64,000 bases of DNA from Rhina ancylostomus (lineage: Eukaryota): the NCBI GenBank assembly GCA_030265395.1, contig JARFYF010000052.1, positions 114,726,505 through 114,790,504 on the forward strand. Reading direction: 5' to 3'. Below are positions 3,360-54,331 of this stretch, one piece after another; the stretch's first letter is position 1, and every line of letters begins with the position of its first letter. A program made the position numbers and the translations under genes. Below the pieces are notes generated by a model. That model was given only the letters and a program-made list of their open reading frames with translations. It did not search any database and was not told the DNA's origin.

Positions 3360-3820
3360 CCTCCCCCATCTTGATTCGATCTTCCTATTACATGCACTCT
3401 ATTCATTCAGTCTCCCATCCACTCCCCTTCCTCCACTGTTATAATCTTCCCACAGTCCCTCCCTTATCTGGTTTCACTAGTCACCTTTTCTTATCAGATT
3501 CCATGATCTGAAGTCCTTGTTGTGTCAACTATTCGCCTCCCAGCCTCTGTCACTATCTAACCCCTCCCTCCCCCACTTAGCTCCATCTGCCCATCAACCC
3601 TCCTCATCTGGATCCACCTATCACCTGCCAGCTCCTACCTTCCCCTTCCCCCTCATTTCTTTGTGCTGGCTATTTCCTCTTTACACACTCAGTCCTGATG
3701 CAGAGTCTCAACCCAAGACATGGACTATTCCTTTGCCTCCAGATGCTACCTGACCCGCTGAGTTCCTCTAACAGTTTGTTTATTGCTGCGGATGCCAGCA
3801 TTTACAATCTCCTGTGTCTC
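3360..3820 (+). mobile_element. Penelope-like 3' region/pLTR remnant
   Basis: Pyrimidine-rich body, ccacctatcacctgccagc, agtcCTGATG...gact at 3691-3726, then cagatgctacctgacccgctgagttcctc. Confidence 0.7.
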
Positions 3821-5209
3821 CACCAAAATTACAAATGCAGAATATTGTTGGAACAGTTATTTGTGACTCCCTTGATCCGCTGAGCTATAATGTATCCTTG
3901 AAACAGATGCTGAATTTATGGAGATGGATAAACAGGAAGAATTTGTATCCAGCCAGCTAAAGGGATGAGCTTAAAATAAAAAGGAGTAAAGTGTATGGCA
4001 TATAGTTGGTTTAATCCACTTAAGGGAAAAAGAAGCAGCTTTGGAAAAGTAATTCTTTCACAAAAAACTCCAGGAGAATTATTAGAGAAACTTAACAACA
4101 AATTGTAACTTCAGGTGAAATGCATGAAAGAAATCAATAAAAATTGAAGGTATTCCAACTGTGTCCAATCCTGGAAGGCTCTGGCCTCCAGAAAGAAACT
4201 GTACAATATTTTGTTAAGTATCCTTGTGAATTGAAGGGTGTGGTTGGTTGGTGTACCAAAACTCCTTGAAATGTTCAGTAGAACATTGAAATATATCTTA
4301 ATTGCTACCCATAAGTGTTTAAAGGAGAAAATTAAAGTGAACTATTGCGTGAAAACACTTTCATTTACAATGTTTATGCAAGAAACTGTTTTCATTTAGT
4401 ACAAAGAATAAGCACTAACTTTATTTATACTTCCATCATGCAACAAACAGGAAGTTGTCCTTTAAGACATTATTTGACAAAGCACAGCTGTTACTGGGTT
4501 TAAAATCTAATATTAACAATTAAGTGACTAGTCATTTGCTCCATTTGCACAGAATATATTTTTCACTATCGACAGTGTACTTGGAAAATAAGTTCCACGT
4601 ACCTTTGAATATGTTTGATTGGACCATGTGATGAAAAAATATTACTGAATCCAGATTAAATCAGTTCTATTTTCCATTTCATGCACAAAGTCACAACAAG
4701 TTTGGTACAAAATATATGACTAAAGATCTTATTAAATGGGTGAATATATTTCCTTCACCTTGATTGCCACTGATTTCAATCATTCACGATTACTCAATTA
4801 ACAAAGCCTTCTGCCTAAAGAGCAGCTTTAAGCTTTACTTAAAACAATTAATATTTGAAAAGAGTTATCATTATCATTCTTTTAACTGCTGATCAAAGTG
4901 GTACTGACTGACACTTACAGGTTGGATTCACAGCCTTCACTTGGATGACGGTCCTCAACTAGTTTGGAATGCATATGCCACAACTATCCATTTGATCATC
5001 TGGCTAATTACCCGGGGTATGGATGAATGCAGATTGAGTATAAAATTTATTCAGTTGTCAATCTTTTGCAACAGAGCAGCTGTTGAAGCAGAAAGGCAGG
5101 CTGGCCCAAGAACTCAGAGTTATTCCATTAATATGATCAACTGGAGTAGATTAACATCGTGTTTTCATTATTCTTGTGAAGTTTTCAGCCTTGGCACAGA
5201 AGCTGCAAT

Positions 5210-5399: not shown

Positions 5400-6201
5400 T
5401 GCATTGTATTCTGCTCTGAACCTCAGATGGTGATGAGGAGACGTATAGAAGTGAGTTAGATTGGCTGGTTGAATGGTTTCCAACAACAACCTGACACTCA
5501 ACATCAGCAAGACCAAGGAATTGATTGTGGACTTCAGGAAGGGGTGTTTGGGGAACACACACCACTCCTCATTGATGGTGAAAAGGGTGAGCAGCTTCAA
5601 GTTCCTGGGCGACAGCATCTCAGAGGATCTATCTTGGGCCCGATGCATTGATGGAATCATGAAGAAGGCATGCCGGCAGCTCTACTTCATTAGGAGTTTG
5701 AGGAGGTTTGGTATGTCACCAAAGACTCTTGCAGATTTCTACAGATGTATATTGGAGAGCATTCTAACTGCTTGCATCACCTCCTGGTATGGGGGCTCCA
5801 ATGCACAGGATCGCAAGAGGCTGCAGAAGCTTGTAGACTCAGTCAGCTCTATTATGGGCACAACCTTCCCCCCCCTTCCTCCCGGCTGTAGAGGACATCT
5901 TCAAAAGACAGTGTCTCAAGAAAGCGGCATTAATGACCTTCTCCATCCAGGACATGCCCTCTTCATGTTACCACCATCAGGAGGAGGTACAGGAGCCTGA
6001 AGACCCACACTTAACATTTTAGGAACAGCTTCTTCCCCTCCACCATCAGATTTCTGAATGGTCCATGAACACTACCTCGTTATTCCTATTTTGCACTATT
6101 TATTTATTTTTAAATTATAGTAATTTTTATGTTGCACTATACGGCTGCCGCAAAACAACAAATTTCACAACATGTGTCAGTGATAATAAACTTGATTCTG
6201 A
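5400..6201 (+). mobile_element. 5'-truncated Rex1/Babar-type LINE (post-RT region and 3' tail)
   Basis: ORF 5473-6000 reads NNLTLNISKTKELIVDFRK...FKFLG...LSW...QLYFIRSLRRFGMSPKTLADFYRCILESILT..ITSWYG. It ends in the tail gtgatAATAAActtgattctga. Confidence 0.85.
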
Positions 6202-9145
6202 AATTTAGTTCCATTGAAGTCAATGAAACTGTATTTCGGAGAGAGAGGACACATGCTTTTGCTGTTGTTTAGCACTGCCATCTGGGGATGAGTCTTCCCC
6301 TCAAATTCAAATGAGCCCTAAAGAAGTAGTACCGACCAAATTAGAATTAATACAAAACTTCAAACAAAATATGTCCAGCATTGTGTGATATAGAATAATA
6401 CCTGGTAAAATCTGGAGCTATGACAACTTGATAGGTGCAATGTGTGCAAAGTGAACCTCCCACAAGTTCCAGACCTCTGCTGGGAACCAAATGAAGTCGG
6501 TCCCCTTTACATTATTTAGTTACCTGGCTCTTTGAACCCCAAGACAAACCAAATGTTAATTGGTTCACTTGTTGAAATTCAATAGCTTTGTGGGCACAAA
6601 ATAATTCTTTTAACTGTACAAACTTTAGCTGTGGAATGGGTACTACTTAACACCTGGTTAACATAGTCTAGTCAAGGTTAGTAGTTTTGTTTTGCATACA
6701 GGACAAAAGAGGCTGAACTTTTACATTTTACTCTGCTGCTTCTAAGTTTGACAACTAATGCTTTCAATATTTTGTGGAACATCTTTTGACCGTATCGTTA
6801 TATTTAAGCTCAATTGAATGTAAACCAGCATCATTCTTCTCCATAATATTTTAGTTAAATGGCTTTTGTGGAAGCAAAACATTTTCCCTTGTTTTAAATT
6901 CAGCTGTCCAAGAAGGCTACCAAAAAGGAATGTTGAAAGCTTTTTCAAGCATGTTATTCATTAGCAAGCAGCCCAGGGATTGTGCTAGCATTTAGCCCCT
7001 TGTTTGTACAAGGACTTTAACTGCTTGTTTTGAATTCATTCAGCTGAATTTTAAATGAGCAATTGAAATGAGAAGGTGCACCAGCTTTTTGTTTCTTGCT
7101 CTTGACTGTTTAATAATATAAATCTAACACTCCAAGCTTAATTTGGCAAGAGTTGACCTTCAGTACTAAAAATAAAATCTGAAAAAAAATCACCCAGCTA
7201 AGAATTGTTTCACATAAATTTGACCTGGTGAAAGCATTAATGAATATAATATGAAACATTTTTGCTGTATTTTAGGATATTATTTGTGTCTATATAGGGT
7301 TATGATAATGGGATGCAAATGTTTGGTTGTTAAGTAAGATTGGACAGCAAATAAGAATAAAATGTGATATGTTCACAATTGACGTTACATGAAGCTTTCT
7401 TTCTGGATTGTACTGCAGTAGACTTGGACCCACAAAGACTTCTCAAAGACATAGGAGCAAGCAAGTGCTATAAAGCGATTTATCCTCATTCTTTTTCCCA
7501 TCATTCAGCCTCCGTGGGAGAAAGCTGTATTTATTTAATTAAATTTAGCACTCTAATACTGTAAGCATACAGACTTCATCCACAACACAGATCCATTCAT
7601 TTGGTATTTGATCATGGAATCAAAACTGGTCTGGTTGCGAGGCAACTCGGTCAGATCAGTAAACAGCCCATAAGACCATCTGCTTGCTCATCATCTGAAA
7701 TATAAGGCAAAATGATGTGTTTAATCTCCATGCCATTTAAAGGGAGTGTATTTTCAATAGGGACTGCTTAACTTTCACACATCAGTGGTGGTATTGCACT
7801 TTAGTACAGCACAACATTGCTCGCTAACTGTTTTCAGTAAGTTGAGAGAAATTTTTCAACATAGTGGAACAGAGATAGACTGAGAGAGAGGTTCAACTCC
7901 AATCACAGTGGAGAACTACCAAGTGGCTTTGTCATTTAAATCTATTTGATGGAATAATTCCACATCCCACAAAAACACACAAAAATAGGAGCAAGAGTAG
8001 GGCACCAGGCCCTTCAAGCCTGCCCTGTCATTCAATATGATCACGATTGATCAATGCTGGGCTCAACTCCTCTTCTATGCTAATTTCCCATATCCCTCAA
8101 TTCTTCAGTCTTTCAAATATTCATCAGTCTCTGTCTTAAATGATCTCACTTCCACCATCCTTAATGGCAGAGAATTCCAGAGATGCACTGCTCTCTGAGA
8201 AAAGACATTTCTAACACCTGTTTTAAATGACTGACCCCATATTTTGTCACCATGTCCCCATGTTTATGACTCTCCCATTAGTGAGAACATCTCTACATCT
8301 ACCCTATCAAGCCCCCTTAGAATTTTATATGTTTGAATAAAATCAGTCCTCAATCTTCCAAACTCAGAATACAGACCCAAAATGTCTAGCCTCTCTTGAA
8401 AGGAAAACCCTCTCATCTTGTGTATTATCCTGCTGAACCTTCTTTGGACTGCCTCTAATGCTACTATATCCTTTTTTAAGTAAGGGGACCAAAGCTGTGC
8501 ACAGTATTCCAGGTGTGGCCTCATCGACACCTTGTACAGCTGTAACAAAACCTCACTATTCTTAAATTCCAGCCCCTTTGCAATAAAGACTAAAATGCCA
8601 TCTGCCTTCTCAACTATTTGTTGGAGCTGCCTGCTAATTTTTTGTGATTCATGCACTAGAACACCTAGATCCCTCTGAACGTCATTCCTTGACAGTCTCT
8701 CTCCATTTAAATTATAATCCGCTTTTTAATTCCTCTTACTAAGGTGCATGACTCCACACTTCCCCTCATTAAACTCCATTTGTCAGGTTTTCACGCAGTC
8801 ATTCAATCTATCTATATCCTGTTCCAGAATCACAATGTTCTCGTCACAATATGTCTTTCCACCTATTTTCGTATCAACAGCAAACTTGGGAACCTTACAT
8901 TTTGCACCTCTTCCAGGTCATTAATGTAAATAGTGAACAATTAAGAGCAAAGAACTGATCCCAGGGGTACTCCATTAACTACTTCCCTCCAGCCTGAGAA
9001 GGATCCATTTAATCTAACTTTGGTTTTCTACGTGACAGCCTGTTTTCAACCACGCTAACACACTTCCTCCAATACCTTGGGCTATTAACTTATGCATCAG
9101 TCGCATATCTGGCACCTTGTCAAATTCCTTTTGCAAATCCAAATG

Positions 9146-9465: not shown

Positions 9466-9577
9466 TACACTACATCTATTGGTTCCACTCTATCAACTTT
9501 CTCTGTAACCCCATCAAAGGATCGAGCAAAATTGTCAAACATGATTTATCTTTCATAAAACTATGCTGACTAGGTTA

Positions 9578-9767
9578 AAACACAAACAAATTCTGGAGGA
9601 ACTCAGCAGGTTAGGCAGCGTCTATGGAGGGAAATGAACAGTTGACATTTCAGGTCAAGACCCGTCATCAGAACCTTCATAGCTGCAGCCTGACCTGTTG
9701 AGTTTGTCCATCATTTTGTGTGTGTTGCTCCAGATTCCAGCGACTGCAGAATCTTTTGTGTTCCCTT
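9578..9767. mobile_element. Fold-back Penelope-derived mini-element with 11-bp TSD
   Basis: TSD tgactaggtta at 9567-9577 and 9768-9778. Inverted arms 9581-9630 and 9674-9724 match at 39 of 51 positions in a manual alignment. Confidence 0.85.
9639..9675 (-). ncRNA. Putative minimal type I hammerhead ribozyme
   Basis: Minus strand reads GGUU CUGAUGA C GGGU CUUG ACCU GAAA UG UC AACUG. Core boxes CUGANGA, GAAA and UH are intact; stem I is GGUU/AACU, stem II is GGGU/ACCU, and stem III is vestigial. Activity is untested. Confidence 0.65.
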
Positions 9768-11044
9768 TGACTAGGTTATTCAGCTTTCCTAAATAATTAT
9801 TTACTTCCTCTTTGGTTATTGACTCAAGTGTCTTGCCAACAATAGATGTCAATCTATCTGGCCTATACAGTAGTTATTTACCTTCTGTCTTTCCTTTTTG
9901 AAGAAGGGAGTCATATTAGCTGTTTTCTAGATTTCTGGTACCATCTCAGAATTTAGTGAGTTTTGAAAAATTTCAGCCAATGGATCCACAATCTCTGTGC
10001 CACTTCCTTCCAAACCCTTAGGTGCAACCCATCAAATTCCAGCCATTTGTCTACCTTTAGCTCTGTCTTTTTCTTTAATACTTTATTCCTTGTTAGTGGG
10101 ATTTTTACAAGTTCTTCCCTGTTATTTGTAATTAACCCATCTGTTATCTTACGGATATTTGCAGAATCTTCCATCATGATGCCTGTTGCAAAAATGTTGA
10201 TTCAGTACATCTGCCATTCCTTTGTTTCTTGTTATTAATTCACCAGCCTCATTCTCTAGATTTCGCTCACTGACATCAGACACATTCTTCCTCTTTATAT
10301 ATCCATAGAAACTTTTACTTTTTGTTTTGATATTATATGTGTTTTCTCTCAAAATCAGTTTTCCCCCTTATGAGTTTTTTAGTTTTTTGCTGATGTATCC
10401 TAAAGTATACCCAGTCCTCTGGCCTACAACCAGTTCTTGCCACTTTGTATTTCTGACTTTTCAATTTTATCCTTGACCTCCTTTGTTAATCACAGGTTAT
10501 GCCTCTTTCTCATGCAATCCCTCTTTCTAATTGGGATAATTTACTGCTGAATATTATGGTCCAGCTTTTTGAATATCTGCCACTGTTCATCTACTGATCT
10601 GTCTCTTACCTTATTTTCCAGTCCAACTAAGATAACTCCACATTCATACCATTCTAAAAGCCCCAATTTGAGTTGAAGACAGTGGTTTTGGTCCTGTAGT
10701 GTTCACCCTCAAACTGCATCTGGAATGGTCACAACCTCCTAGGGGATCTTTAACCACAAGCTGTCTTATTAATCCTACTTCATTAGTCATGACCAAATCT
10801 AAAATAGCCTATTGCCGGGTAGGTTCTATAATATACTGCTCCAAGAAGCAACCCCTGGCGCATTCCACAAAACCTTCTTCCATGATACTCTTGCGGGTTT
10901 GGTTTGTCCAATCATAGATAGATACAAAACTCCCATAACAATTGCAATTAGCTTCCAACATGCCCTTGATATTTCCCCATTTACACTCTGCACTATCAAG
11001 TGGACATGTCTTCATTCCACTGCTGTGCATGATTTCAACCCAAA

Positions 11045-13083: not shown

Positions 13084-13201
13084 ACCTCCAATCTGGCTTT
13101 TGCACTATGTGGGAAAACGTATTCAGTGCCTAAAATAAAGGTACCTCCAATCTGGCTTTTGCACTATGTGGGAAAACGTATTCAGTGCCTAAAATAAAGG
13201 T
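13084..13201. repeat. Perfect 59-bp tandem duplication
   Basis: acctccaatctggc...cctaaaataaaggt occurs at 13084-13142 and again at 13143-13201 with no mismatch. Confidence 0.95.
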
Positions 13202-17462: not shown

Positions 17463-17781
17463 GATGTACACTTTAAATTGCAGCATAAATATTAAATTTA
17501 TAGATCTTCATTTGGTAGAATTCAATTTAATTCATGGTTGTGCTAACTGATGAGCTTTGAATCAGAAGAACAATTTCGGGCACAATTAAAGATTAAAGGA
17601 TGAAGTTGGGCTTGATACACCCCTTTCTTTGGGTGCATTGAACACCCCTGGAACTCCAAAATAGCATCTGGTCAGTGCACATTTAAAAGGTGGATGTTGC
17701 TGTATGCTGTGTTGGTGAAGAAGTAGAGTGATATAGGGACATGTTAGCTGTTGTACAGTAAATATAACCGTGAATGTAGAA

Positions 17782-19078
17782 GCACAAGAAAGATTGCAGA
17801 TACTGGAAATCTGGAGCGACGCACAAAATGCTGGAAGAACTCAGCGGGTCAAGCAGCATCTACGGAGGGAAGTGGACAGTCAATGTTTTGGGTTGAGACC
17901 CTTCTTCAGTACTGTAAAGAAAGAGGGGAAGTAGCCAGTACAAAAGGTGGAGCGAAAGGTGGCGGGTGACAGGTGAATCCAGGGGAGGGAAGAAGATGAG
18001 CAGGTGGGGGAGGAGGGATCCAGGCTGGTGCCCCCTCCAGATCCCGCCCCGGCTGCCTTCGGGCCAAGACCTCTCACGCTGCCACTGGGTCTTACTTCTC
18101 CTCCTCTTCCACCACCACTCCCCACCCTCCTCTGACCCCTCCAATCCTCAACGCTTCTCTCACCTCTCCAACACTCTACACCTCCCCTGACCCCAGCTCC
18201 ACTCCCTGCCATGTTTCCACTATCCCCTCTGACCTTCCACTCTCTGAGGAGGAACGTTCTGTCCTCAACAGGGGCCATACCTTAGTCCCCTTGCACCCAT
18301 TTCTGCCTCCATGCTGACTTCTTCGGCAAGGACTCCTCCCCACTGATAACCCCTTCTCCCGCCTCAAGCCTTCCCCCACCTCTTGGACACCCCGCTCTGG
18401 CCGCCTGCCCACTCTGGATCTTTTCATCTCTAACTACTGACAGGACATTAACCACCTTGACTTCACCACTCCCCTCACCTACAATGACCTCATCCCCTCC
18501 GAACACATTGCCCTCCACTCACTCCACACTAATCCCAAACTCACCATCAAACCCACAGACAAGGGTGGTGCTGTTGTAGTCTGGTGGACTGACCTCTACC
18601 TTGCAGAGACCAGAATGCAGCTCCTAGACACCTCCTCTTACTTATCCCCAAACCAGGACCCAACTGAGAAGCATCAGGCCATTGTCTCCTGCACCATCAC
18701 CGACCTCATCACCTCTGGAGACCTCTCCTCTACAGCCTCCAACTTCATAGTTCCCCTACCCCGCACTGCCCATTTCTACCTCCGACCCAAAATCCACAAA
18801 TCTAGCTGCCCAGATAGGCCCATTGTTTCTGCCTGCTCCTGCCTCTCTGAACTCGTATCCTCGCCTTCCTCCCTCTCTCCACCTGCCTATCTTCCCCCCT
18901 CACCTGGATTCACCTATCACCCGCCAGCTCTTTCTCAGCCCCCTCCACCCACCTTTTATACTGACTATCTCCCCTCTTTCTTTCCGGTCCTGAAGGGTCT
19001 CAACCCAAAACATCAGCTGTCCAATTCCCTCCATAGATGCTGCTTGACCCACTGAGTTCCTCCAGCATTTTGTGTGTC
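17782..19078 (+). mobile_element. Internally deleted Penelope-like retroelement with inverted pLTRs and 15-bp TSD
   Basis: RT N-terminal motifs TIKPTDKGGAVVVW and FYLRPKIHKSSCPDRPIVS (18543-18840). The left pLTR is reversed and the right pLTR is forward. TSD accgtgaatgtagaa (17767-17781) / actgtgaatatagaa (19079-19093). Confidence 0.9.
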
Positions 19079-22000
19079 ACTGTGAATATAGAAATATGTG
19101 TTGGGCTAAGCAGGAAGTGTAGGGTGTGTGCGCTTATTGGTAGAGATGGTTGGAAGACAAGTGATGGAAATGTGGTACACTTAGGCTGGCTGAGGCTGGT
19201 GACGCAGTTCATAGGGAAAGACATTTGATAGTCTAGTCACTGATTTTGACAGCTTCTGAGGCCACCAAACCTCTTCAAGTAGTGTATCCAATGCTTGGGG
19301 CTTTGCATGTGGCATTAACCACAACAGTTATTGTGCCCACTTCTTTCTGAATGAATGCCAGGAGACCTTCCTGACTTTCCTCCTTTCCATCAAGGCTTCC
19401 AGTACAATATCCAAAAGCTTCAGAGCCACCTTCCATGTGTCCCATTTTATTGTTTTCTCAGTCAATTTCACATGTAGAGGAAAAGCTAGAACCCACATTC
19501 GGCACAGTGCATAACCCTTTTAAATAGTGCAAGCTTGCTTGAAGCAGTGCTTTAACTTGTGTTTGACTGTCATGATATTGGCTGCTGCTGGAATGTCTGG
19601 CCAATGAACAGCACAGTTAACAATGGCTGTACACTGAAATCATTATAATGAACAGGCAGCCAAGGATAGCATGCTGGCTGCATTTCAACCAATGGGCACA
19701 GGTCAATGTTACCTTACAATTCATTTAACTGTTTTTAGGGAGTATCTAATATAGGCCCCTAAATTTAAGTAAAGAATCCATGTTAACAAACTTTAATAAA
19801 AAATAATTATTTGGTACTTGTATTTAATCTGAATTCTAAATAACAATATGAGGTATTTAAATATAATGCATATGGAGATGGAAAATTGGAAATTCCAGGA
19901 AGTGACACAGAATTGAATCCAAAAACAAATTCAAGACTGGAGACAGCTATGTTCTTCAGCATGCATATCAGAGAACGTATTCCACATGGTGTCGTTGTAG
20001 TTCTCAAGAGTCAGCATTGTGGTTTTGGGCAAAATTATTTTAGAAGAAAGTGCTTGATGAAAAACACATCTGCAACACATAAAATGAAAAAAATACTTTC
20101 CTGTATTTTCATGTTTTCTTTTTGTTTTTGGTTGATTCATAATCGAGATTTATTAAAAAAGGCTCTCTTCAAGACATAGCTGGCAAAAATGGCATCCATT
20201 GTCAAACTAAGAGACACTGTCGGTAAAGACCTAGATTTGCTGGTTGTAGGCCAGGTAGCTGATTTTGATTTAATTTCCAGCACAAGTTTCACCAATATTG
20301 AACTAAAAAGAGAAAGAAAAGAATTAGCCAAGATTTCTGTTTCTGATTGCTATCGAGTGACACCATTGAAATGCAGCAAATTGAACACTGGAAAACAACA
20401 GGATTCAATTTAGTGATGATAATCCAATTGTCGAAGTGCCCTTTTGACAACCACTTTCCAAATTCTCTCATGATGATTGTGAACATGGAATGTTTTTCAT
20501 CTGTGGCTGAGATGCCAGAGGGTGGTCAGAATTCATGAAGTTGTGCATTTTATGAGGTGGCAGCTCAAGAGAAAGGATCAGAAAAACTTCATGATAACAC
20601 TTCCTAAAGAAGAATTGTATTGATGGGAAACAAATACAAAACTATGTGAATAATGCTGTCCACAAGAAAAATGTGCAGTTTGCCATGCAAATGAGGAAGC
20701 TGTGTTTTTTTTCACCCTTTATCTAGTTTTAGAATAATGGACTTCAGTAGAAAACTGGAAGTGGATCATTTTTTTCTGCCAGGATAACAACACTTTTATT
20801 TAGTCCATGTTCAACATGTTTATGAAGTTGAATACAATGACTACTATACCTTTCAGAGAGTTAGCCATGTCCAGTCATTTCCAATCAATCTTTATTTTCC
20901 ATCGTTGTGTGAGCTCGACAGCAAAAAGGTTTGTTACTTGTTTCCTTTTAATTAACAATCAACTTAAAAAAGCAACATAATACAACTACCCAGCTGAAAT
21001 TGTTCTTTATATCTTTTTTGCTCATTTAGAATTGCATTTTATTAGTATCCAAACACATAGTGTCTAATCTTTGGCAATATTCCCAGATACAGAAACTTCT
21101 CAAGAGAAATTGAATTTAGTGTAGTGTATGGAAAGATGACAAATACAGAAAAAAGGTTCAAAAAGTAAAATGATAAAAAATAATGCCATTTTTTAACATT
21201 GAAAGTACCAGATTCATTTTTGCCTTAATGCTCTGCAAAGTGTGTAGACACATCAGCATTATAGGGAGGAATTCACTTTGGGCAGATGAGTAGGGGTTAA
21301 TTCTTAATATGGTTAACAAATTACAGACACATAATGTTATTATTCAGTTTCTTAATTCTGGAGTATAATGTTCAACCATAAAAATTTACTGAATATCATT
21401 TTTCACATATGTTTTGTGATCAGAACCACATGCACAATTTCAGAATGGCCAGCAAAATGTAGCACACAGACTTGAAACTAGGCAGTGGGGGGGAAAGAAT
21501 TGCCCAAGTGAAACTGATTCATGCTAATAAGACCTTGACTAAACTAATAATTGTGGCTGATAACTTAAGAACGTGCTTGCAACATATAGTTTGTTCGGAA
21601 TGTTTCATCTGGATCTGGCTTTTAAAATGAATTTTGTCCAGAGTAAAACACAGCAGGGTTTATCTCACTTTAATCATTGATGCTGCAGTATAGAGTAAAA
21701 CAGCAGAACAATCAGAAGCAGTTTACAATAAATCAACATTGCATTCAACAGTTCACCTGATGTTGCAAAGTAAAGAACTGGGCCCAAAGAATGATTCTAT
21801 CTTGATTCTGATCATTCCAGAAAATAGAGATGAATCTTAAATCTACATTTGCTATTTTTAAAAAATCATATTGTTTTCCTACAGTTAGTGGTAATCACCT
21901 TGGAAGGTTTACATGTCAAGGTTGCATGGACAATTGGTTCTGTTTTTATAGAGGACTAGACAGAGTGCTCCAGTATCTCCTGCTGATAAAATTGTCGAGC

Positions 22001-37500: not shown

Positions 37501-38569
37501 AACTGACATTGCACCGTATGTCAATTAATCTCGTGGATAATCTGCCCAGTGAATACATAAAGATTACAGTGATCAAAACCTGGCAGAATCAGGTTAGTTT
37601 GATGTAATCTAATTTTGAATAATCTGACAGCAATCTAAGATCCAACATGAATAAAAGTCACTTACATAGGCTGTAAGTAGGAACTGACAGGAAAAAAACA
37701 ACAGAAGTCATCTTCAAGAAAAGAGAAAAAAGCAGTAGATCTTGGTAACTATACAATGGTAGAATTAGTGGTAAATATTAAGATATTGGACTTTTTCTTT
37801 GGTGATATTTACCTGAAACCTAACGCGTCAGCATTCGTAGAGTTCTCTCTTAGGTGGTGCTTTACACCAGTCTCTGTTCAGACATCAATAAACTTGAATC
37901 CAAAGTCAAATAAAATGAAGTCTGGTAGACATTCGCAACTCTCTGAGAAGCCCATGTTTGGAATAGAAGCGCAGCTTTGAACAAGAAGGTGGTTGTTCCC
38001 ACAACAGAAGCTGCAATAGCACTATTGGCACAGTGCCCAGAATGTCTGGGCTCAGTATGTTTAAGGCTATCACCAGATGCAATGAAAAGTGTCCATTTCC
38101 TTAGGTATATACACTTCTGTAATAACCCATAAACTAAATCAAGGGCAGACTTGCTCACATTGTGAAGTTCTGGAGAAGTGTGAACTATGTTGAATGTGTA
38201 CATTTGGTAAGTTAACTTCAAAACATAGGTCTAGATTTTCCAATTTGCAGGAGTATTTGAGTATACTTTAGGATACATTTATTGTCAGATTGACTTTTCC
38301 AGCTTCTGCTAATGGTCAGTGGTAGCTTTAGCTGCAAGTGCCATTACAATCTAAATAAGCCAGTAGTTATCTAAAGATAAATTTGCTCAGCATCAAATTT
38401 CACGCACTGATTTTGGAAGTGAACATCTTTATAGAACTTTACTTTTCAATGTCCTAATAGCAAAGTGAATCAACAGTTACTTCGAATAGCCAGTTAATAG
38501 TCACCAAGTATCGGCCATTGCCACATAATCTCTATTTTAATTGCTTCATTTTTGAAATGGCTTCGAGGT

Positions 38570-39640
38570 GAGAAACAGCAACGAGAATGCTGAAAGCCCT
38601 CAGCGGGTCAGGTAGCATCAGTGGGGAGAGAAACAGAGTTGTTTTTTTGGACTTTCCCTCTATCATATTTGATAGGGCTCTCAAGCACATCTCTTATATA
38701 TTTCATACCTCTGCTCTCATCCCCTCTCCTTACTGTCTGCCCCACCAGCCTTTACAGGTCATCTTCTATAATGTTTGCTAGTTCCAGTTGGACTAACCAT
38801 ATCTCCCTCTCCCCTTCACTTTCAGCATTCTATATGGATCACTCTCTCCACAACTCCCTGGTCCACTCTTCTGTCTCTACAAGCCACTCCTCTTCCCATA
38901 ACACTTTCCCATGCAATCATGGAAAATATAACACCTACCCTATTACTGCTTCCATTTCCCACAATCCAGGGACCCAGTAGTTCTTCCAGGTGAAGTAACA
39001 ATTCCCTTACACTTCTTCCAATTTTGAGTATTGAATTTGGTGCTCACCATGTATTCTCCTCTGTGCTGAAGAAAACTAAATGCNNNNNNNNNNNNNNNNN
39101 NNNNNNNNNNNNNNNNNNNNNNNNNNNNNNNNNNNNNNNNNNNNNNNNNNNNNNNNNNNNNNNNNNNNNNNNNNNNNNNNNNNTCCTCTGTGCTGAAGAA
39201 AACTAAATGCAGATTGGCTGAACATTTTGCAGAACGCCTCTGTTTAATTTGTAAGGAAATCCTAAGTTATCAATCGACTCACTTTAATTCTCTGCCTCGC
39301 TCCCAATCAGTCCTCTCAGTCTTCACCCTTCTACGTTGCTGGAATAATGCCCAACATAAGCTAAGGGAACAGCACCTTATCTTCCACCTGGGTATGCGGA
39401 AGTTCTTGGAACTTAATGTTGAATTTAACAGTTTCAGGTTACCACTCCATTTTTCCCCTCCCTCCCTATGGGTGAGTCTGTACCTTTCCATTTCAGTTTG
39501 TTTCAGCTTAGCTTTCAGTCTCCAAATGGTCTGCACCCTATTACAGGCATTCCATTTATTCTCTCCACCCATCTCCTCTCTGCAACTTATAACATGTGGT
39601 TTCTCACTTCTTCGGTTCTGATGAAGGGACCTTGACGTTA
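38570..39640 (+). mobile_element. Penelope-like element 3' part with decayed GIY-YIG endonuclease
   Basis: LHNSLVHS..HNTFPCNHGKYNTYP, then EY*IWCSPCILLCAEE/TKCRLAEHFAERL (decayed GIY-YIG), HFNSLPRS and HKLREQHLIFHLG..LNVEF. A reversed pLTR piece lies at the left end and CTGATGAAGGG at 39618. Confidence 0.8.
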
Positions 39641-40471
39641 TTTACTCCAGGTTATAAAATTGTATTTGTAGAACACTGCTAGAAAGGTCTTTGAGGTAGC
39701 AGTTGTGTGTCTTTTTTTTCTGCATTTATTTTTTGTGATTTTTTTTCATTAATGAAGTTGGAAAAAACATAGTACTCATAAATATTATCACAAATGACCC
39801 ACAATTTAATGTTAATATTTCAAACACAAGCATCTTTAATTAAATTTCCTGAAGCTTCATGGATTTTTGTGGTGTTGCATGTTTAATGTAGAATACGCTG
39901 GGAAGGACTAAAATTGATTGACAGTTTGGCAGGATATATTGTTTAATATGAACAATCATTACTAAACCAGAAATATATCATTACAGAGCCAGTAAATGGA
40001 ATAAGATTCTTATTGAATCATTGTAGAGTAAAATTACATATTTAAGTAATTTATGGAGAAAAATTTGGAATTATATTTCTTTTGTTGCCTTATAAATATT
40101 TTCTAAAACAGAAGCAGTGGTCAAATCAATGGTTGGAAATGCATGGGAAGGAAATGCAATTTCAATTTCTCTCATAGATATGGTCTGATAACTTGTGTAG
40201 AAGACACATCATCCAATTTAAGATGAAGATACATTAAACAGCAACTCAATACAGTTTTGCTTCAGAGGAAGATTATTGTCTTTTTTTGACTATCCTCAGA
40301 TGATTACATTCCACATAGAATTACCATAATACATTTAGGAATTTGAGTTTTGCTTTTCTTTGAGAAGAATAGGTCTGTAGGGAAAGATGAAAATACACTT
40401 TTAAATGTCTGTTTGGTTTATATGTCTTTTCTTGGGTTCTCTGTCTCACTCTTTATACTTACTCCTTGCAG

Positions 40472-40652
40472 GATCTCCAGTGCTCACTGGCACTGGCACC
40501 ATCACATTGATTGTAGATGACATCAATGACAATGTTCCAGCATTCGCTTTCAAAACATACCATGCCACCATCCCTGAGGACGCTCCAACAGGGACTGATG
40601 TTTTGCTTGTCAACTCCACTGATGCCGATGAAGGTTTGAATGCAGTTGTCAG
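40472..40652 (+). CDS. FAT4: FAT4 internal coding exon (181 bp, phase 1 to phase 2), cadherin repeat junction
   Basis: Acceptor ctttatacttactccttgcAG (40470-40471) and donor AG|GTaagg (40653). Translates GSPVLTGTGTITLIVDDINDNVPAFAFKTYHATIPEDAPTGTDVLLVNSTDADEGLNAVV, with cadherin DxNDN, PE and DxD motifs. Closely matches vertebrate FAT4 as recalled. Confidence 0.95.
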
Positions 40653-41997
40653 GTAAGGTCATTGTGTAGCAATTTTTTTTCTCTGCAGCAGCAGAGTACA
40701 AGTAGAATTCTAACTCATTGATGTACCCTGAGCTGAAATGCATTTTACTCATCGGCCTTAAAATTTGATCACATCACCCATGCTATTCAAGCAAAAGACT
40801 GCCCCTAAAGATCCAATAAGACACGTGATATGCTCACCATCTACATCACAAGTATGTTAGCTGCAATGTTGGACTAGAACATGCTCCTGGGTGTGGTTGA
40901 ATTGTCTAACGCTGTTTTCTGTGTTTATTTGGGAACACTCAGATAGTGATACATCTTGATATAAAATGTCAGCTTTTGACATAATGTCTTTATCATGCCA
41001 CATGTGGGTATTCCCTTGGCTGACCAGANNNNNNNNNNNNNNNNNNNNNNNNNNNNNNNNNNNNNNNNNNNNNNNNNNNNNNNNNNNNNNNNNNNNNNNN
41101 NNNNNNNNNNNNNNNNNNNNNNNNNNNNNNNNNNNNNNNNNNNNNNNNNNNNNNNNNNNNNNNNNNNNNNNNNNNNNNNNNNNNNNNNNNNNNNNNNNNN
41201 NNNNNNNNNNNNNNNNNNNNNNNNNNNNNNNNNNNNNNNNNNNNNNNNNNNNNNNNNNNNNNNNNNNNNNNNNNNNNNNNNNNNNNNNNNNNNNNNNNNN
41301 NNNNNNNNNNNNNNNNNNNNNNNNNNNNNNNNNNNNNNNNNNNNNNNNNNNNNNNNNNNNNNNNNNNNNNNNNNNNNNNNNNNNNNNNNNNNNNNNNNNN
41401 NNNNNNNNNNNNNNNNNNNNCTAATGCATTGTTAAAGTGGCAGTATTTACCTGCAATACCAGGTTAGCCTGCAGATGGCAATACTAATGGCCTGTATTGA
41501 TTACAAAACAATCCATTGTGACACAGGTGTTCTGTTGTTGAAACTTTGAAAGTCACATCCAGTCTATGCAACGTACTTCCAAGTCACAAAGGGATTCAGG
41601 AAATCCTAAAATCGGACTGATGTATAATTCAAATGCAGTATTTCATCTTCCTCAACTGATCTATGGAACATATACTTGTGAATTACACAAATATACACAG
41701 AAGTAAAATTGGCAGACAGAAATAGAAATCATCATAAGCTTCTTGGACCAAAGAAAAGTGCAAAATATACACTACATTCCTTTTTAAGCCCCTCTCTTAT
41801 GTTGTTGATGTTCTGAAAATTGAAATTTGGAGCCAATAAGACTTCATTCATGCACATTTAAGTAAACCGTGCTTAAGAATGTACAAATCTTTTTTCACTG
41901 TCAATGGGCAAGTCAGTTGCATTGTTCTAATTTTAGCGGCTTTGAGGTATGAGAAATAGGCCATTAGGTTTAATGAGGAACAGTTGGCCTCACGATC

Positions 41998-45572: not shown

Positions 45573-47054
45573 TCTTAATGAGTAGAAAATAATGGCGAGT
45601 AATATGGAACTACTAATTGTGCATTCTTAGCAATTTGCAAGAGGATTCAAATGTTAGGAAAAATGTTTCTTTGATGAAAAATTGAAGCAATATTTGGATG
45701 GACTTAAACTTATTTACATCTAAGCCTAAGTAGCCATTGGGTTAATTCATGATTAAAGGCTGAACCATAATAAGAGAAGAAATAACTTTTAGCTAAATAT
45801 TATGCCAGGGATTTTAAAACATATAAGGAATTGACATTCTGCTTTCCAGTATTAATCTGGCGGAGACTCAATGAGAAACTTCTTTCCAAATTCCTAGCAT
45901 TGACTTCAGTAAAATATTTTGCTTAACATTCGTTGTATTTATAATTTAGAGTTACCTGAAATGCACACCTTGCTTCCTAAATCAAAGCATGTGTAACTGA
46001 TTGCCTGTGTTTAACTTTGAAGCTAGAGTGTCTAATGTTAGCCATACTGTTTTCACATGCTTACATAGTTATTTGCTTTAAATCAGTACTCAAACAAGTC
46101 TGCTTTCTTAGGAAATGATGTGCAGAGTTTTCATGGTCGATTAAAGGCACTCTTGGCTCTGAGTCATAGCTTTGGAATCAGTGCTTTATGTTATTTAACA
46201 TCTGGAGACATACATTATTAACCTCTTTGTGGAATGGTGGATAGTGGCTGGAGTGAGTGTAGATTAGACTAATCCTTCAATGAAATGTGTACAAAATAGC
46301 TTATCTGCTGAAAATGTGAATGTAGTCAGTGACTGTTATCCTGTGTATTTAGCCAAACTAAATACACATCTGTGCTCAGCACTTAGCAGTGGTAGATGAT
46401 TATTGGAATTGTTTTGAGTTCTGAAGAACAGAGTAGATCCAACATTCCTGGAGTAGTCCCCTGAATGAATCAGTGAAGAAATGCAGTCCAGAGCTTTAAG
46501 ATGCAGAGAGATTCCCCCATTGTTTTCTAAGTCTCCATTGAATTAGCAGAGCCAGAATAATGAATAGTTTGGCAACAACTAACCAAGGTTAAGAATCTTA
46601 TTCCTGATCCAATCTCCCCTGCTGGAAGATTATTATTTATGAATGCTGGGCAAGCAGCAGTTGAATGGCCTTGCTCATACACACTATCTAAACTTTTGGA
46701 TGAAGGACAGGTTGAGATACAAAAGGTACCGGCATCTGTTAAGCATTATTTTAGTTTTGTTTGGGTATTCAAAAGAAGAGAAAAGAAAGGAACTGATAAA
46801 AACATGATAATTTTTCATAGCAAGTAAAAAGCAACTACCACATGTCAAATAATTGCATCTAAATATCAACTGTAGGAGTTATGTTTTCTTTTGACAGCAA
46901 CTAAGAGTGATATTTAAACCAATAGAAAATGCTTTTGAAAACAATGTATACAACAGTACTCTTTTTTTTGTCATGGTGTCTTTACTTAAGTTGCTCAATG
47001 ATATTTAATCCAGGTGTACTGACTCGATTTCTTTTATTTTCTTTCCACTAACAG

Positions 47055-47305
47055 CTACAGCCTGGTTGGAGGTAACTCCAAGTTTTCCATTAATCCATCC
47101 ACTGGACAAATTATCACAAGTGCTCTTCTGAACAGAGAGACCAAAGAAACATACAATCTTATTGTGGTGGCTACTGATGGAGGCATACCTCAGGCCAAAT
47201 CCAGTTCAGCCATTGTTTCTCTAACAGTTTCTGACATCAATGACAATCCTCCCAGGTTTCATCATTTCCCTTATGTTACCCACATTCCAGCACCCACAAA
47301 TGAAG
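47055..47305 (+). CDS. FAT4: FAT4 internal coding exon (251 bp, phase 2 to phase 1)
   Basis: Polypyrimidine tract ending ctaacAG (47053-47054) and donor G|GTaagc (47306). In frame with the previous exon: (S)YSLVGGNSKFSINPSTGQIITSALLNRETKETYNLIVVATDGGIPQAKSSSAIVSLTVSDINDNPPRFHHFPYVTHIPAPTNEG. Confidence 0.95.
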
Positions 47306-48094
47306 GTAAGCATCTTTATCATAACCACGGTCTGCATTATTTTGTAAGTTAATGTCTAAAATCTGGAGTTTTACTTGCTTATTCTTCCAGTGTTGCGAAT
47401 GATTCACTGCCTAAATGTAACATATAGGGCTACTGTTTCATCAACAAACATGGCTCAAATATAATTGGTGCTACCCTTTTTACAACATGTCAAATAACTT
47501 CTTGTAATTGCAAACCAGGAATCCATTTGATCTCAACAAGAGCAATTGGAAGTTAAAAATAAAATTCAGATCAATAAATAATAGTGTTACACAGTACAAT
47601 CCATACTGATTGAACAAATTGCTGGTCACCAATGTGTTATCCTGTGAACTTATTTTCACATTATAACTGGAGGAATAACATTCAACAAAAAACTTAAAAC
47701 TTACTCAATTTAAAACGTCTTCTTAATTCTTGTGCCATGCCCACATAACCACAATCATGGTTTTAATTAAATGACATGAGATTGAACTTTTCTCTCCCAT
47801 CAAAAGTGAATGAAAATCAGAAACTAAAAGATAAAAATTCATCATCAAGATCCCATTGCCTCCATTCCTGTGATAGATAGCCAATCATGGTTAAAAATGT
47901 AAAACGTTAAATTGTAAGAATCTTTTCTCAAAATTGCTGAGGTTACCTATTTAACTTCTTCAAAATATATCATTAGACTATGAAGCAAAAGCTGTGAATG
48001 CTGAAACAAAAACACAAAACAGTGGAAACATGCAGCAGGCCAGGAAGCATCTGTGAAGAAGCAAGAGGAAAGTCAGATTTACATGGTACTCTTC

Positions 48095-48226: not shown

Positions 48227-49865
48227 GAAACTCTCAGTGCTTTTATTCTGTGCCAGTCCACTGTGCCCTCCATATTTATGTAATAATGCCAAACCAAAGG
48301 GAAACAAGGACTATTCTCTAACCAGATGGCTCTCAACTCCAATGTTCAACTTCTGGTTTAATTCTGAAGAAGTGAAAGGGGGTACTATAAGAGAGTGATA
48401 GAAGGAAGCCCTGGGAGTCAGTTAACATTTATAGATCACTTCAGTCTTATTTTCAACACTGATGCCATCCTCTCAGACAAACAGATAATTCCAAATAGAC
48501 ATTGTTGACTTTATTATATTCTCATATGACTATCATTCTGCAAAACTAACAGCAATTCTCATAATTTCCTATTTGGGTCATTTCAGCTTTACCTTTTATA
48601 ACTGTCTTTTTACAACAGTTTAAAACAACAGATTAAAAAAAAACAAAGGGTGGTAGAAAAGGAATTCAGGCTGTATTTAATCTATAGGCTTGGATAGCAT
48701 AAAAAAATTACTTGACCATTATTCTTAAGATCAACAACATCAACAGCTTCAAATTATGTCTTATTAATAATTCATAATTATCCATTGTGCTGCATAATAT
48801 GCATTCCTTTTAACATTCAGAATCAGAAAAATAACTATTGTGGTCCATTGGGTAGTCTAGGAAGCAATGGCCATCAGCATTCCCATAAAGTATTTTTCTA
48901 AGCATGTTTTATAATATGGGTTGGCAGATTTCATCTGGCTCTGGAACGTAGATTGGCTGCATAGGAACAGATGCTTGATTTTCACTGCAGATACCTAGTT
49001 TTGTATATTTAAATCCTATACACTGGCAAGTTATACACACTAAAACAATGCTCTTTTGTAAAGGCTTCATTGTGTTGGATCTCTGCTTTATGACTCTGCA
49101 CATGAATAAAATTGTCTAGTGCTCAACAGCAGGAGCAATGGAGCAAAATATTTAAAATAATCACCAAAACTCTCTTCTTAAAGATCAAGTTACATGATTT
49201 ATGACAGTCTGGATGTACTCATTTGTGAGTTTAACATGCCTCATTCAACAATTGATTTCAAGCGCCATTCTATTAATTGGAAGCATGTTGGCTTTTTACA
49301 GCAAAGAGACATGGTTCTGATCATATTGTTGCTGATCTCACTGTTTATTGTGGTGTTCAAGGATAAATAATCAGGATGAATTTATTCTTTGCATTCTGAT
49401 GTAAACCTGTATTTCTTTTACAACTGCTGAAATTTTTCTATTGTTTCCAGCATTTGTACAGTGTGCAATGCCCTGAAGATTTTACATATTTATCAAAATG
49501 ATTTCTGGGTTTCCAGAACTGTGAACATCAATTGTATTTGTGACCCTGTTGGCAGTCTTTCTAAAAACCCAGGTCATGCAAGAATTATTTGACTTTTTTC
49601 CAAATCCTTCTTTTGAGCTCGAACATTTCTTTCTAGTGTGCTACAAAATTAATATTATTCAATTTCATGAACTGAATAAAACCAAAAGCAAAGACATAAG
49701 ATTGATAGTAATTGGGATGGTGTGCTGGCAGAAAGAGGTTGACTATAGAGATGCATATTGATTATCTAACACTACCCTTATTTATGACCAAATTTTATGA
49801 CAGGTCAATTTGAATTGTGTGCACATAAATATGAGCTAATATATTCCCCTTCTTCCATTCTGCAG

Positions 49866-52800
49866 GATCATTTGTGTTTGCTGTTACTGTTTCTGATGCC
49901 GATAAAGGCCCGAATGCAGAACTCCAGTATTCCTTAACAGGAAGAAATGTGGAAAAATTCCAGATTGATCCACACCGTGGTGCTATTATGGCTGCTCAAA
50001 GGTTAATGGGAGGCACTGACATTACTGTTACTGTTAACGTTAAAGACAGTGGAATACATCCCATGTCAGATTCTACCACTGTGACAGTCAGATTTGGAAA
50101 TGAGGCTGATTTTCCACAATTCAAAGCAGGGCAACAAATTTTTGTATTTCCTGAAGACCAGAAGGTAAACACCTATATTACAACGGTATCAGCATCTTCC
50201 ACAAGGCAAGATGTAAGAGGGCCATTATCCTACTATATAGCCAGCGGTAATCTCGGCGCTGTCTTCCATATTGATCAGCTGACAGGAAAACTTGTTCTTA
50301 TGAAGTCTTTAGACTTTGAAGCCGTTCAAAACTATGTGCTATGGATCGAAGCCAGAGATATGGGGTTTCCTCCCTTTTCTTCCTATAAAAAATTGGATAT
50401 AACTGTAAAAGATGTCAATGACAATGCACCAGTTTTTAAGCAGGATCCCTTCACAGCTAATGTAATGGAGAATTCCTTCTCATACCAAATAATCACCATT
50501 GAAGCTGAAGACATAGACAGTGGGCCCAATGGTCAAATAGAATATACCATTGTGGATGGCAACAAAGGCAATAATTTCATCATTAACAGACAAACAGGGC
50601 AGATCAGAAACGCCGAACAATTGGACAGAGAAAGGATTGCTCAGTATACATTAACAGTACAAGCAACTGACAAAGGAGCATCGTCAAGGAGCTCTTTGTG
50701 TCATGTCATTATTAATGTCTTGGATGAAAATGACAATGCTCCAAGATTCTCACAGATATTCAGTGCTCAGGTGGCTGAAAATGCAGCTATTGGTTACACG
50801 GTGACCCGTGTTACCACATCAGATGAAGACACTGGAATAAATGCTGTCAGCCAGTACTCAATAACAGACGTGAATCTTCCCTTCTCCATAAATCCAAAGA
50901 CTGGAGATATCACAGTCAGAAGGCCTTTGAATCGGGAAGATACAGATCACTACACTGTCAGAGTATATGCCCATGATTCTGGGTGGACAGTGAATACTGA
51001 TATTACTGTTTTTGTGACAGATGTAAATGATAATGCTCCACGATTCTCTTATCCATCATACTACCTTGATTTCCCAGAGCTCACAGAGATTGGCTCCAGA
51101 GTTACTCAGGTAGTAGCTACAGATCCTGACAGTGGCCTCAATGGTCAGGTATTCTATTTCATTAAGTCGCAGTCAGAATTCTTCCGAATAAATTCCAGCA
51201 CAGGAGAAATCTGCACTAAACAATATGTAAAGTATCACAATTCTACCAGCTCCAACAACCTAAATATCAATAGGCACAGTTTCATTGTGATGGCCTCAGA
51301 CCGGGGTAGGATTCCCTTGGTGAGTGAAACCACAGTCATTATCAACATTGTGGACAGTAATGATAATGCTCCACAGTTTGAATCAGAAAAATACTTTACT
51401 CCTGTTACTAAAAATGTCAAGATTGGTACAAGGCTAATTAAAGTCACTGCAATAGATGACAAAGATTATCACATGAATTCAGAAATAGAGTATTACATTT
51501 CTGGTGGAAATGGTTCAAATCAGTTTGCACTGGACAAGAATAATGGCTGGGTCTCTGTTGCATCATCTCTGAGAGTCTATGTACATAAAATGTTCATTAT
51601 CATAATCACAGCAACAGATAAAGGTAATCCACCACTATCTGCTACGACTACAGTCCGCATTTTAGTAACTGAGGAGAATAACCACACCCCTCAGTTCTCT
51701 CAGAGTCATATCAGTATCACTGTTCCTGAGAGCCTCACTGTGGGGACAGTCATCAGAACAGTTTCGGCTAGAGATAAAGATGCTGATATGAATGGGTTAA
51801 TCAGGTACAACATTTCTAAAGGGAATGAGGCAAGATTGTTCTCTATTGTTAATTCAACTGGTGCATTATCTCTAGCTGGACAATTGGATTATGAGACCCA
51901 GCAAGTTCATGAACTGACCATTAGTGCTGAAGATGGCGGTTGGGTGAAAAGAACTGGCTTCCTCAGTATTACTATCCAAGTCACTGATTCAAATGATAAT
52001 GTGCCACTGTTCAGTCCCAGTGAGTATTTTCCAATTATATCAGAGAATGCTCCGAGTGGTACAATAGTAGTTCAATTAAATGCCACAGATGCAGATTCTG
52101 GAGGTAATGCTCTGATTGCCTACACAATTGAGACAACTGACAGTGATCTTTTTGCCATTGATCCAAATACTGGAGTCATCAGGACCCAAGGATTTTTGGA
52201 TTTTGAAGCTCAACAGAGTTACCACTTGTATGTGAAAGCCTTTAATGTTCCAGATGAGGATCGCCTCAGCTTCGCCAATGTTTATTTGCAGCTTAGTGGT
52301 GTGAATGAGTATGTCCCACGCTTTGTCTCCAGGCAGTATACTTTTGAGATTTCAGAAGCTGCTGCAGAAGGTACTGCTGTCGGGGAAGTATTTGCAAGTG
52401 ATCGTGACCTTGGAGATGATGGAGTGGTGAAATACATGCTCTTTGGTAAAAGCAGAAAGAAGGGATTCATGATTGATGAAAAGACTGGCCAAATTTATGT
52501 ATCAGGCCAACTGGATCGAGAAAAGGAAGAAAAAATATCTTTAAAAGTTCTGGCTAAGAATGCAGGAAGCATCCGTGGATTTGATATTGATGAAGTCTTT
52601 GTGAATATAACTGTGCTGGATGCCAATGATCCCCCCGTTTTCACAACTGAGGAATACTCTGTACAGATTAATGAGGAGGCTGCACCTGGAGCTCATGTTA
52701 TTTTTGTAAGTGCCTTTGACTCTGACTCTGTTCCCAGTTGGAGCAGATTCACTTATCACATTGGAACTGGAAATGAAAAAGGCGCCTTTTCCATTAACTC

Positions 52801-54331
52801 ACAGACTGGCCAGATTTCAGTGGCAGCAGAGCTGGATCGTGAGTCCATTCCTGTATACAACCTCTCTGTGTTGGCTATTGACTCAGGAGTGCCTTCAGCC
52901 ACAGGTAGCACCTACTTGGTCATCAACCTGGAGGATATAAATGACAATGGGCCTACCTTAACGTCTACAAGTGGAGAAGTTGTAGAAAACCAACATGCAG
53001 GGGCTGTAGTCATGACACTTAATGCCACTGATCCAGACCTTCCACCAAACCAAGGTCCTTTCACCTACCATTTGCTCAGCACAAGCTCTGCTACAAACTA
53101 CTTCACCCTTAGCTCTGAAGGAATCCTTACCACAACTAGAGAAATTGACAGAGAGCAGATCAGTGATTTCTACTTGTCAGTAGTCACCCGTGATTCTGGT
53201 ACTCCACAGATGTCTTCCACTGGAACTGTGCATGTCACAGTGCATGATCAGAACGACAATCCATCTCATCCCAGAACCGTGGAGGTATATGTCCACTATT
53301 TTGGAAACCTATTTCCTGGAGGGATTTTGGCCAGTGTTAAACCCCAGGATCCGGATGTATTGGATAATTTCCGCTGTACTCTGACTACAGGGGCTACAAC
53401 TCTTTTCAGCATTCCAGCAGGCACGTGCAATCTGAATTGCCAGCCAAGGTCAACAGATGGAACCTTCGATCTGATTGTCCGTAGCAGTGATGGTTTGCAC
53501 AGTGCTGTAACCAACAATGTCCATGTTTTTTTCATGGGATTCAATAACCTGACCATAGACAACAGTGTTCTTCTTCGCCTGAATATTGTCACCGTGAAAG
53601 ATTTTCTTACCAATCACTATCTGNNNNNNNNNNNNNNNNNNNNNNNNNNNNNNNNNNNNNNNNNNNNNNNNNNNNNNNNNNNNNNNNNNNNNNNNNNNNN
53701 NNNNNNNNNNNNNNNNNNNNNNNCTATCTGCACTTCCTGCGCATTGCTAACTCTCAGCTGACTGGGATGGGGACCACAGTTCAGATCTACGGCATTTATG
53801 AGCAGGATGACAAAACATATGTAATGGCAGCTGTGAAAAGATTTAGTAATCAATATATAAGCCCCAGTGGGGTAGCCACTTTTTTTGAGAGCATCAAAGA
53901 AATCTTATACAGGCAGAGTGGTGTACGAATAGACTCAGTGGACCATGACCCTTGCTCGAATGATCCATGTCAGAATGGTGGAAGCTGCCTGAAAAGGCTT
54001 GCTGTTAGTCCGACTGTGCAAAGTGAGGAAAGTATCCCAGTGGTTATTGTGGCTAACGTGGTTCTACAACCATTCGTCTGTCGATGCTTGCCAGGATACT
54101 TTGGAGAGGTCTGCGAAACTGACATAGACGAATGCCTCCCATCTCCTTGCCACAATGGTGGAATCTGCCACAATCTAGTTGGTAGATTTTCATGCACCTG
54201 CCCTGAAGGGTTTATGGGCACTGCTTGTGAGCGGGATGTCAATGAATGTCAATCAAATCCCTGCAAGAGTGGTGGAAGTTGCCACAATTTTCCAGGAGGT
54301 TTCAGCTGTGCTTGTAAAGCTGGATATACAG
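49866..54331 (+). CDS. FAT4: FAT4 giant coding exon: about 11 distal cadherin repeats, a linker and three EGF-like domains; interrupted by a spurious 100-N gap
   Basis: Acceptor ccattctgcAG (49864-49865) and donor ACAG|GTatat (54332). ORFs 49874-53761 and 53767-54384 show repeated LDRE/LDFE, DxD and DxNDN motifs, then EGF cysteine patterns (CQNGGSC, DIDECLPSPC, DVNEC). Removing the gap plus the duplicated 7-mer (107 bp) gives 4359 bp, or 1453 codons, phase 1 to phase 1. Confidence 0.97.
53624..53723. other. Spurious 100-N assembly gap inside the FAT4 exon
   Basis: ctatctg is present on both sides (53617-53623 and 53724-53730). Confidence 0.95.

Follow-up and report, generated by a model that had tools for sequence, protein, structure and literature searches.

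Does the hammerhead-bearing fold-back of 190 bp at positions 9578-9767 represent a unit that was amplified as such, or a single insertion of a larger retroelement? The earlier note had taken it for a MITE-like derivative that may represent a non-autonomous family. The window (the whole stretch of 64 kb that was analysed) was the entire DNA searched for copies of the repeat and of its junctions. Very probably, the locus is a single insertion, 5'-truncated in both arms, of an endonuclease-positive Penelope-like element (PLE), an abundant chondrichthyan element of the Neptune or Nematis type; the copy is now decaying neutrally.

Anatomy of the insertion at 9567-9778

The element is flanked by an exact direct repeat on the plus strand (9567-9577 and 9768-9778), which matches in all 11 positions and agrees with the 11-bp target site duplication (TSD) first described for it. 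By chance, an exact 11-mer located within 5 nt of both ends was found in 62 of 200,000 random position pairs. Alignment to sibling repeats divides the enclosed 190 bp into two parts, which abut without a spacer (9578-9674 and 9674-9767). The left arm (9578-9674, minus strand, 97 bp) is the inverted, 5'-truncated 3' end of a PLE pseudo-LTR; it bears the hammerhead, begins 3-4 nt before C3 of this motif and has no extension or 'tail'. The right pseudo-LTR piece (9674-9726, plus strand) is in direct orientation, is likewise 5'-truncated and starts downstream of the hammerhead. It is followed by a 41-nt tail (9727-9767, plus strand), which is present in the right arm only and recurs in the sibling pieces at 17782-17818, around 190-228 and around 3785-3822. 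The two arms meet head to head at 9674/9675 with an overlap of 1-2 nt, and no palindrome was seen at this junction.

Inverted arms of about 50 bp, previously counted at 39 matches in 51, were recovered with 41 of 53 columns identical (9579-9630 on the minus strand against 9674-9726 on the plus strand). The description as a fold-back with inverted arms holds in that the arms exist, but the right repeat is not terminal, as 41 nt (9727-9767) separate it from the TSD; the inverted repeat is merely the portion that is common to both truncated pieces. Identity between the two arms amounts to 77-78%, whereas the left arm is 84% identical to a sibling arm. By pairwise identity the arms of the element do not cluster together and may come from more than one source RNA. 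None of the tandem arrays in the 64-kb window contains the 190-bp element.

Hairpin z-scores were -5.1 (minus strand) and -8.0 (plus strand), and on neither strand did any of 200 shuffles reach the same stability. For 9579-9726, all five transitions between the arms lead to G-U pairs on the plus strand, the sense strand of the host gene (by eye and post hoc), which gives the hairpin of this strand an advantage of 12.6 kcal/mol over that of the minus strand. The arms of the sibling insertion at 17782-19078 have no plus-strand wobble bias (~7 versus 13, by eye), and the bias is probably due to chance. The tail segment 9731-9754 folds as a short, imperfect hairpin; in the available description of the anole element, the start sites of reverse transcription sit in a stem-loop.

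The repeat family and its parent element

According to BLASTN and nhmmer, both arms are pieces of a single repeat, each corresponding to its 3' end, and profiles built from window copies detected 12 pieces of this repeat in the window. Eleven of these were found at E 0.0015 or better, six of them being training pieces, and the twelfth (39609-39637, E 0.038) had also been used in training. Read on the hammerhead strand, the repeat consists of a pyrimidine-rich stretch, the hammerhead, ~60 nt and an optional extension of ~35-41 nt. Three head-to-head insertions are present in the window. For the other six pieces, an inverted partner was not found within 3.5 kb; of these six, one is cut by the window start and another lies near an N gap. 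Weak repeat-like and tail-like pieces (E 2-3.3) at 3458-3529 on the plus strand, just upstream of the copy at 3566-3828, are possibly a decayed partial tandem. As a contamination check, an exact 23-nt pattern of the repeat was compared with prokaryotic genomes, which gave 0 matches.

The sibling insertion at 17782-19078 (junction near 18020) consists of an inverted arm of ~240 bp with a tail (~35 nt), a reverse transcriptase (RT) fragment and a tail-less repeat. Its TSD is a direct repeat with 13 of 15 positions identical (17767-17781 and 19079-19093), a 14-mer with at most two mismatches being met by chance in 22 of 20,000 cases. The N-terminal RT fragment (18189-18863, plus strand) has a broken frame and a DKG motif. 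Pfam recognised neither of its two stop-free pieces, and a search with the 141-aa stop-free part yielded 430 homologues. Among the best four (60-67% identity), two belong to Chiloscyllium and one each to Mobula and Stegostoma, and a homologue from Hemitrygon is 70% identical over two thirds of the query, in line with the chondrichthyan context that had been proposed. When five RT relatives were subjected to Pfam analysis, RVT_1 was detected in four and GIY-YIG in two, of which one passed the curated cut-off and the other fell short of it; RVT_1 and GIY-YIG occur together in long relatives. In this one copy the RT frame passes from just after the RPIVS motif directly into the terminal repeat by an internal deletion, which could mark a non-autonomous PLE subfamily.

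The third head-to-head insertion (38563-39637) contains two pieces found with the repeat profile, an inverted one (38563-38657, minus strand) and a direct one (39609-39637, plus strand) that includes the hammerhead's 5' half. Between them lies a decayed linker and GIY-YIG remnant (38771-39441, plus strand) that is interrupted by an N gap. This remnant was detected by profile only (iE 3.8e-10 and 9.7e-6), the profile being made of the 31 long RT relatives; BLASTP against two relatives gave no match, and among the 32 candidates of a homologue search none reached E 0.001 or better. A TSD of this insertion was not found. The N gap (39084-39183) is flanked on both sides by an identical 27 nt and is probably an assembly overlap.

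In the siblings, the same repeat joins a PLE RT fragment (18189-18863) and a GIY-YIG remnant (38771-39441), which bears out the Penelope origin suggested earlier. By the features examined, 9567-9778 is an inverted PLE insertion in truncated form; its tie to RT and GIY-YIG is made through the siblings and not through the element itself, which is non-coding. Neptune and Nematis are marked by a CX2-5CxxC linker ahead of GIY-YIG (PMC8557442). Such a linker is common to 17 of the 31 relatives of at least 800 aa, and its decayed motif lies in the window at 38.9-39.1 kb. The parent PLE would be of the Neptune or Nematis type, an assignment made by linker motif.

The hammerhead and its decay

On the minus strand, 9640-9675 parses as a minimal type I hammerhead, as the earlier note had read it. 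The motif comprises the 5' strand of stem I (9675-9672), the core C3-A9 (9671-9665), an unpaired C (9664), stem II (9663-9660 with 9655-9652), GAAA (9651-9648), UG at positions 15.2-16.2 (9647-9646), U16.1 (9645), C17 (9644) and the 3' strand of stem I (9643-9640). All 12 positions of the catalytic core are intact, with one base between positions 9 and 10.1, and the C of the putative GUC cleavage triplet, placed before at plus-strand position 9644, agrees with C17. The claim of stems I and II stood in part: the parse fits both, but in the 5' strand of stem I only about GUU is derived from the repeat, the G at 9675 belonging to the other arm, so that stem I is clipped by the junction. The pair G10.1-C11.1, which is G-C in three of the eight window copies, is replaced by G-U, and with the non-palindromic UG at 15.2-16.2 helix III has lost its Watson-Crick palindrome.

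The scan that had been suggested for the motif gave a divided result. The hammerhead was the sole descriptor match in 64 kb, but no Rfam hammerhead model matched: an Rfam scan had 0 hits at the gathering score, and at E up to 10 four weak matches were obtained, all to non-hammerhead families. As the Rfam model classes miss minimal motifs, this silence is no argument against the parse. Among shuffled or simulated windows, 9 of 100 matched a loose descriptor by chance, and 0 of 100 control windows matched a strict one, which had been set post hoc after the hit. The 45-nt motif alone folded no better than shuffles (z -0.08). When the monomer was constrained to the hammerhead fold, the ensemble fraction was 6e-9 for the sequence as it stands and 2e-7 when three CpG positions were restored, both of which are negligible and do not discriminate. 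Across the eight copies the stem register was supported by 75.7% paired cells compared with at most 52.9% when slid, and covariation in stems I and II was not above shuffles (observed values reached by 96-228 of 500).

The reduced stem III had been explained by CpG decay of an ACGU palindrome, and the window copies support this proposal. Positions 15.2-16.2 read TG in four of the eight, CA in three and CG in one, variants from which CG would be the family's ancestral state. The change is costly, as the 4-bp helix III duplex was calculated at +2.6 kcal/mol as found and -1.7 kcal/mol for ACGU, i.e. ~4 kcal/mol worse. G12 is lost in four of eight copies; at 9640-9675 the decay of the CpG at 11.1-12 affected the C, which left G12 in place. 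The full core is present in one of eight copies, whereas 1.07 would be expected under neutral decay according to a rough model. The intact core, to which the earlier note had drawn attention, can thus not be taken as a sign of function.

The metazoan PLE minimal hammerheads described in PMC4209133 share CUGANGA, one unpaired base, stem II, GAAA, a two-base helix III, UH and a short stem I with the motif at 9640-9675, which differs from them in UG at 15.2-16.2, G-U at 10.1-11.1 and the clipped stem I. In Fig. S3 of that paper, we counted G10.1-U11.1 in 8 of the 56 natural motifs, so that the G-U change alone is not disabling. According to our own reading of the same figure, UG at 15.2-16.2 occurs in no minimal motif. 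The 56 aligned motifs include no cartilaginous fish. Most motifs of that study were single copies, probably derived from truncated PLEs, and some were opposite-strand pairs 100-700 bp apart; a lone minimal motif gave no cleavage and multimers cleaved weakly (PMC4209133). The anole hammerhead depended on protein, and insertion in vitro did not need it, as hammerhead mutants still inserted (PMC11167929).

The window also contains a plus-strand gene, in which Pfam detected 11 cadherin repeats (exons at 40405-40653, 47023-47349 and 49835-54384), followed by EGF-like repeats when read by eye. Going by the Pfam hit, this gene would be a FAT4-like protocadherin. If 9.6 kb is intronic, as we infer, the hammerhead is probably antisense to the FAT4-like pre-mRNA. 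Being single, clipped, CpG-decayed and probably antisense to the host gene, the hammerhead in 9578-9767 looks like a fossil, and its features point to an inactive motif. It is probably a passenger that belongs to the terminal repeat of the parent; there, it would function in dimeric form or be helped by protein. In the sibling, the arms at 17880-17910 (minus strand) and 18985-19020 (plus strand) have the same G-to-A states at three hammerhead CpG sites, including G12, on opposite genomic strands. The source RNA of the sibling at 17.8-19.1 kb may already have carried a dead ribozyme, a weak indication with a chance of ~1 in 8.

Where the left arm (9578-9674) stops, 3-4 nt upstream of C3, the siblings continue into a tract of pyrimidines that has AG or GG at its end. 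In six copies (~96, 3692, 17911, 18987, 26689 and 39615) the tract is 66-83% pyrimidine and resembles a 3' splice site, with endings AG in three, GG in two and TG in one. The left arm (9672-9675) and the copy at 44025 both start right at the edge between tract and hammerhead. The intron of Drosophila virilis Penelope is described to end at helix I (PMC4209133).

Probable origin of the insertion and comparison with known elements

PLE insertions have been described as an inverted, 5'-truncated copy beside the 5' end, with a tail of 30-40 bp at one end only (PMC8557442), and a tail of this length is also described in PMC11167929. The purified anole PLE protein, which is a predicted dimer, cuts both strands of the target and extends them; its reverse transcription begins at either of two sites, and the interval between these is the tail (PMC11167929). 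For rotifer PLEs, TSDs of 8-10 bp were reported, and self-priming on an antisense template was favoured from junction palindromes (PMC3846280). The origin of inverted PLE insertions is described as unresolved in PMC8557442 and PMC3846280.

At 9567-9778, an RT/GIY-YIG protein would nick both target strands 11 nt apart. One 3'-OH would prime cDNA synthesis from the outer RT start site, leading to the right arm with its tail, and the other 3'-OH would prime from the inner start site, leading to the tail-less left arm. Both cDNAs would halt after ~95 nt and be joined at the 1-2 nt overlap, and fill-in would generate the TSD. Priming on both nicked strands would thereby place an antisense repeat after the left TSD and a sense repeat with tail before the right TSD, with a variable junction. 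The twin priming is put forward by analogy with L1, and the joining step is likewise a proposal.

A different history was considered, in which the 190-bp fold-back is a re-mobilised non-autonomous unit that was copied in trans by PLE RT and endonuclease from a master with already diverged arms. This would account for a perfect TSD despite 12 of 53 differing arm columns (23%), which has p ~0.06-0.09 if both go back to one event. PLE terminal repeats are moreover enough for mobilisation in trans (PMC3846280), and vertebrate retrozymes were proposed as non-autonomous PLE derivatives (10.64898/2026.07.22.740005). We nevertheless consider it unlikely, as the three head-to-head insertions of the window have three different junctions, 0 of the 2 others sharing 9674/9675, and the 30-nt junction of the 190-bp element has no second copy in the 64-kb window; the MITE-like family of the earlier note lacks support on the same grounds, differing junctions being the refuting condition that the note itself had named and that applies within the window. 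A tail on one arm and a TSD outside both arms are expected of a primary insertion, the perfect TSD is also what drew notice to this example, and priming from two different family RNAs would explain the divergence of the arms. Improbable, too, is the idea that the 5' edge of the hammerhead, with the splice-site-like tract of the siblings, is a preferred point of breakage for the left arm and that the 190-bp hairpin itself was amplified by PLE enzymes as a fixed head-to-head ribozyme unit in cartilaginous fishes. If true, this unit would be a non-tandem counterpart of retrozymes, with a long hairpin extending stem I.

Retention of the copy by selection, as a working cis-element in the form of an active ribozyme or of a hairpin in the host pre-mRNA, is very unlikely. 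The 12 of 12 core bases, the natural occurrence of G10.1-U11.1 (8/56 motifs, PMC4209133) and the strong plus-strand hairpin (z -8.0) with all five arm transitions giving plus-strand G-U pairs (by eye, post hoc) would be compatible with such a role, but core retention equals the neutral expectation, covariation does not exceed shuffles, the arms of the sibling lack the wobble bias and the hammerhead probably runs antisense to the cadherin gene of the plus strand. In addition, a single minimal hammerhead did not cleave, and no minimal motif in Fig. S3, by our own reading, has UG at 15.2-16.2 (PMC4209133). It is hardly credible that the two pieces were inserted independently, or that a local inversion took place later, and that the 11-bp repeat at the ends arose by chance. 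The arms are 77-78% identical without clustering together and the family is dense, with 12 pieces in 64 kb, as this scenario would have it; against it stand the rarity of an exact 11-mer at both ends (62 of 200,000 trials), the direct abutment of the pieces and the recurrence of the same anatomy with a TSD in the sibling, for which the chance was 22/20,000. The preferred reading of a one-off, truncated PLE insertion is consistent with an old, heavily shortened PLE copy in the form of two head-to-head end fragments, which is an ordinary outcome for such elements.

Endonuclease-positive PLE insertions (PMC8557442, Fig. 2 legend; Pen2 and Pen2a in PMC3846280) have in common with 9578-9767 the head-to-head inverted terminal pieces, a tail at one end, a short TSD (which is optional in PLEs), strong 5' truncation and a hammerhead in the terminal repeat. 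The element differs from them by its extreme truncation, to 190 bp in total with no ORF, and by the lack of a junction palindrome. Non-LTR retrozymes are, like this element, short and non-coding, carry a type I hammerhead and are kin to PLE terminal repeats, and they were reported in one chondrichthyan (PMC7229834; 10.64898/2026.07.22.740005). A retrozyme reading was rejected, as retrozymes are described as head-to-tail tandem units, each with a hammerhead, and here a single head-to-head unit is found with no tandem array. The element also resembles MITEs in being small and non-coding with inverted repeats and a TSD (PMC8969392). This reading was rejected as well: according to the same source MITEs, which have terminal repeats and a fixed structure, originate from DNA transposons, whereas the element is derived from a retroelement, its repeat lies 41 nt from the right end and the junctions vary.

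In the literature searched, with Repbase and Dfam outside the search, no description of a shark or ray hammerhead family of this kind was found. The locus is a known PLE insertion form with a known ribozyme class, in a lineage for which no motif description was found, and as it stands it matters little. Given 12 pieces and three fold-backs in 64 kb, fold-backs should be very numerous in the genome of a shark or ray. As a dataset, the family could be of use, since a map of breakpoints, tail side and TSD lengths could separate twin priming from self-priming.

Two further reading frames lie upstream of the element, one at 5473-6000 (plus strand) with a Pfam match to ALKBH8_N and one at 8264-8725 (minus strand) with no Pfam match. 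Both resemble what we presume to be C-terminal remnants of non-LTR retrotransposons. Downstream, an exact tandem duplication of 59 bp is present at 13084-13201.
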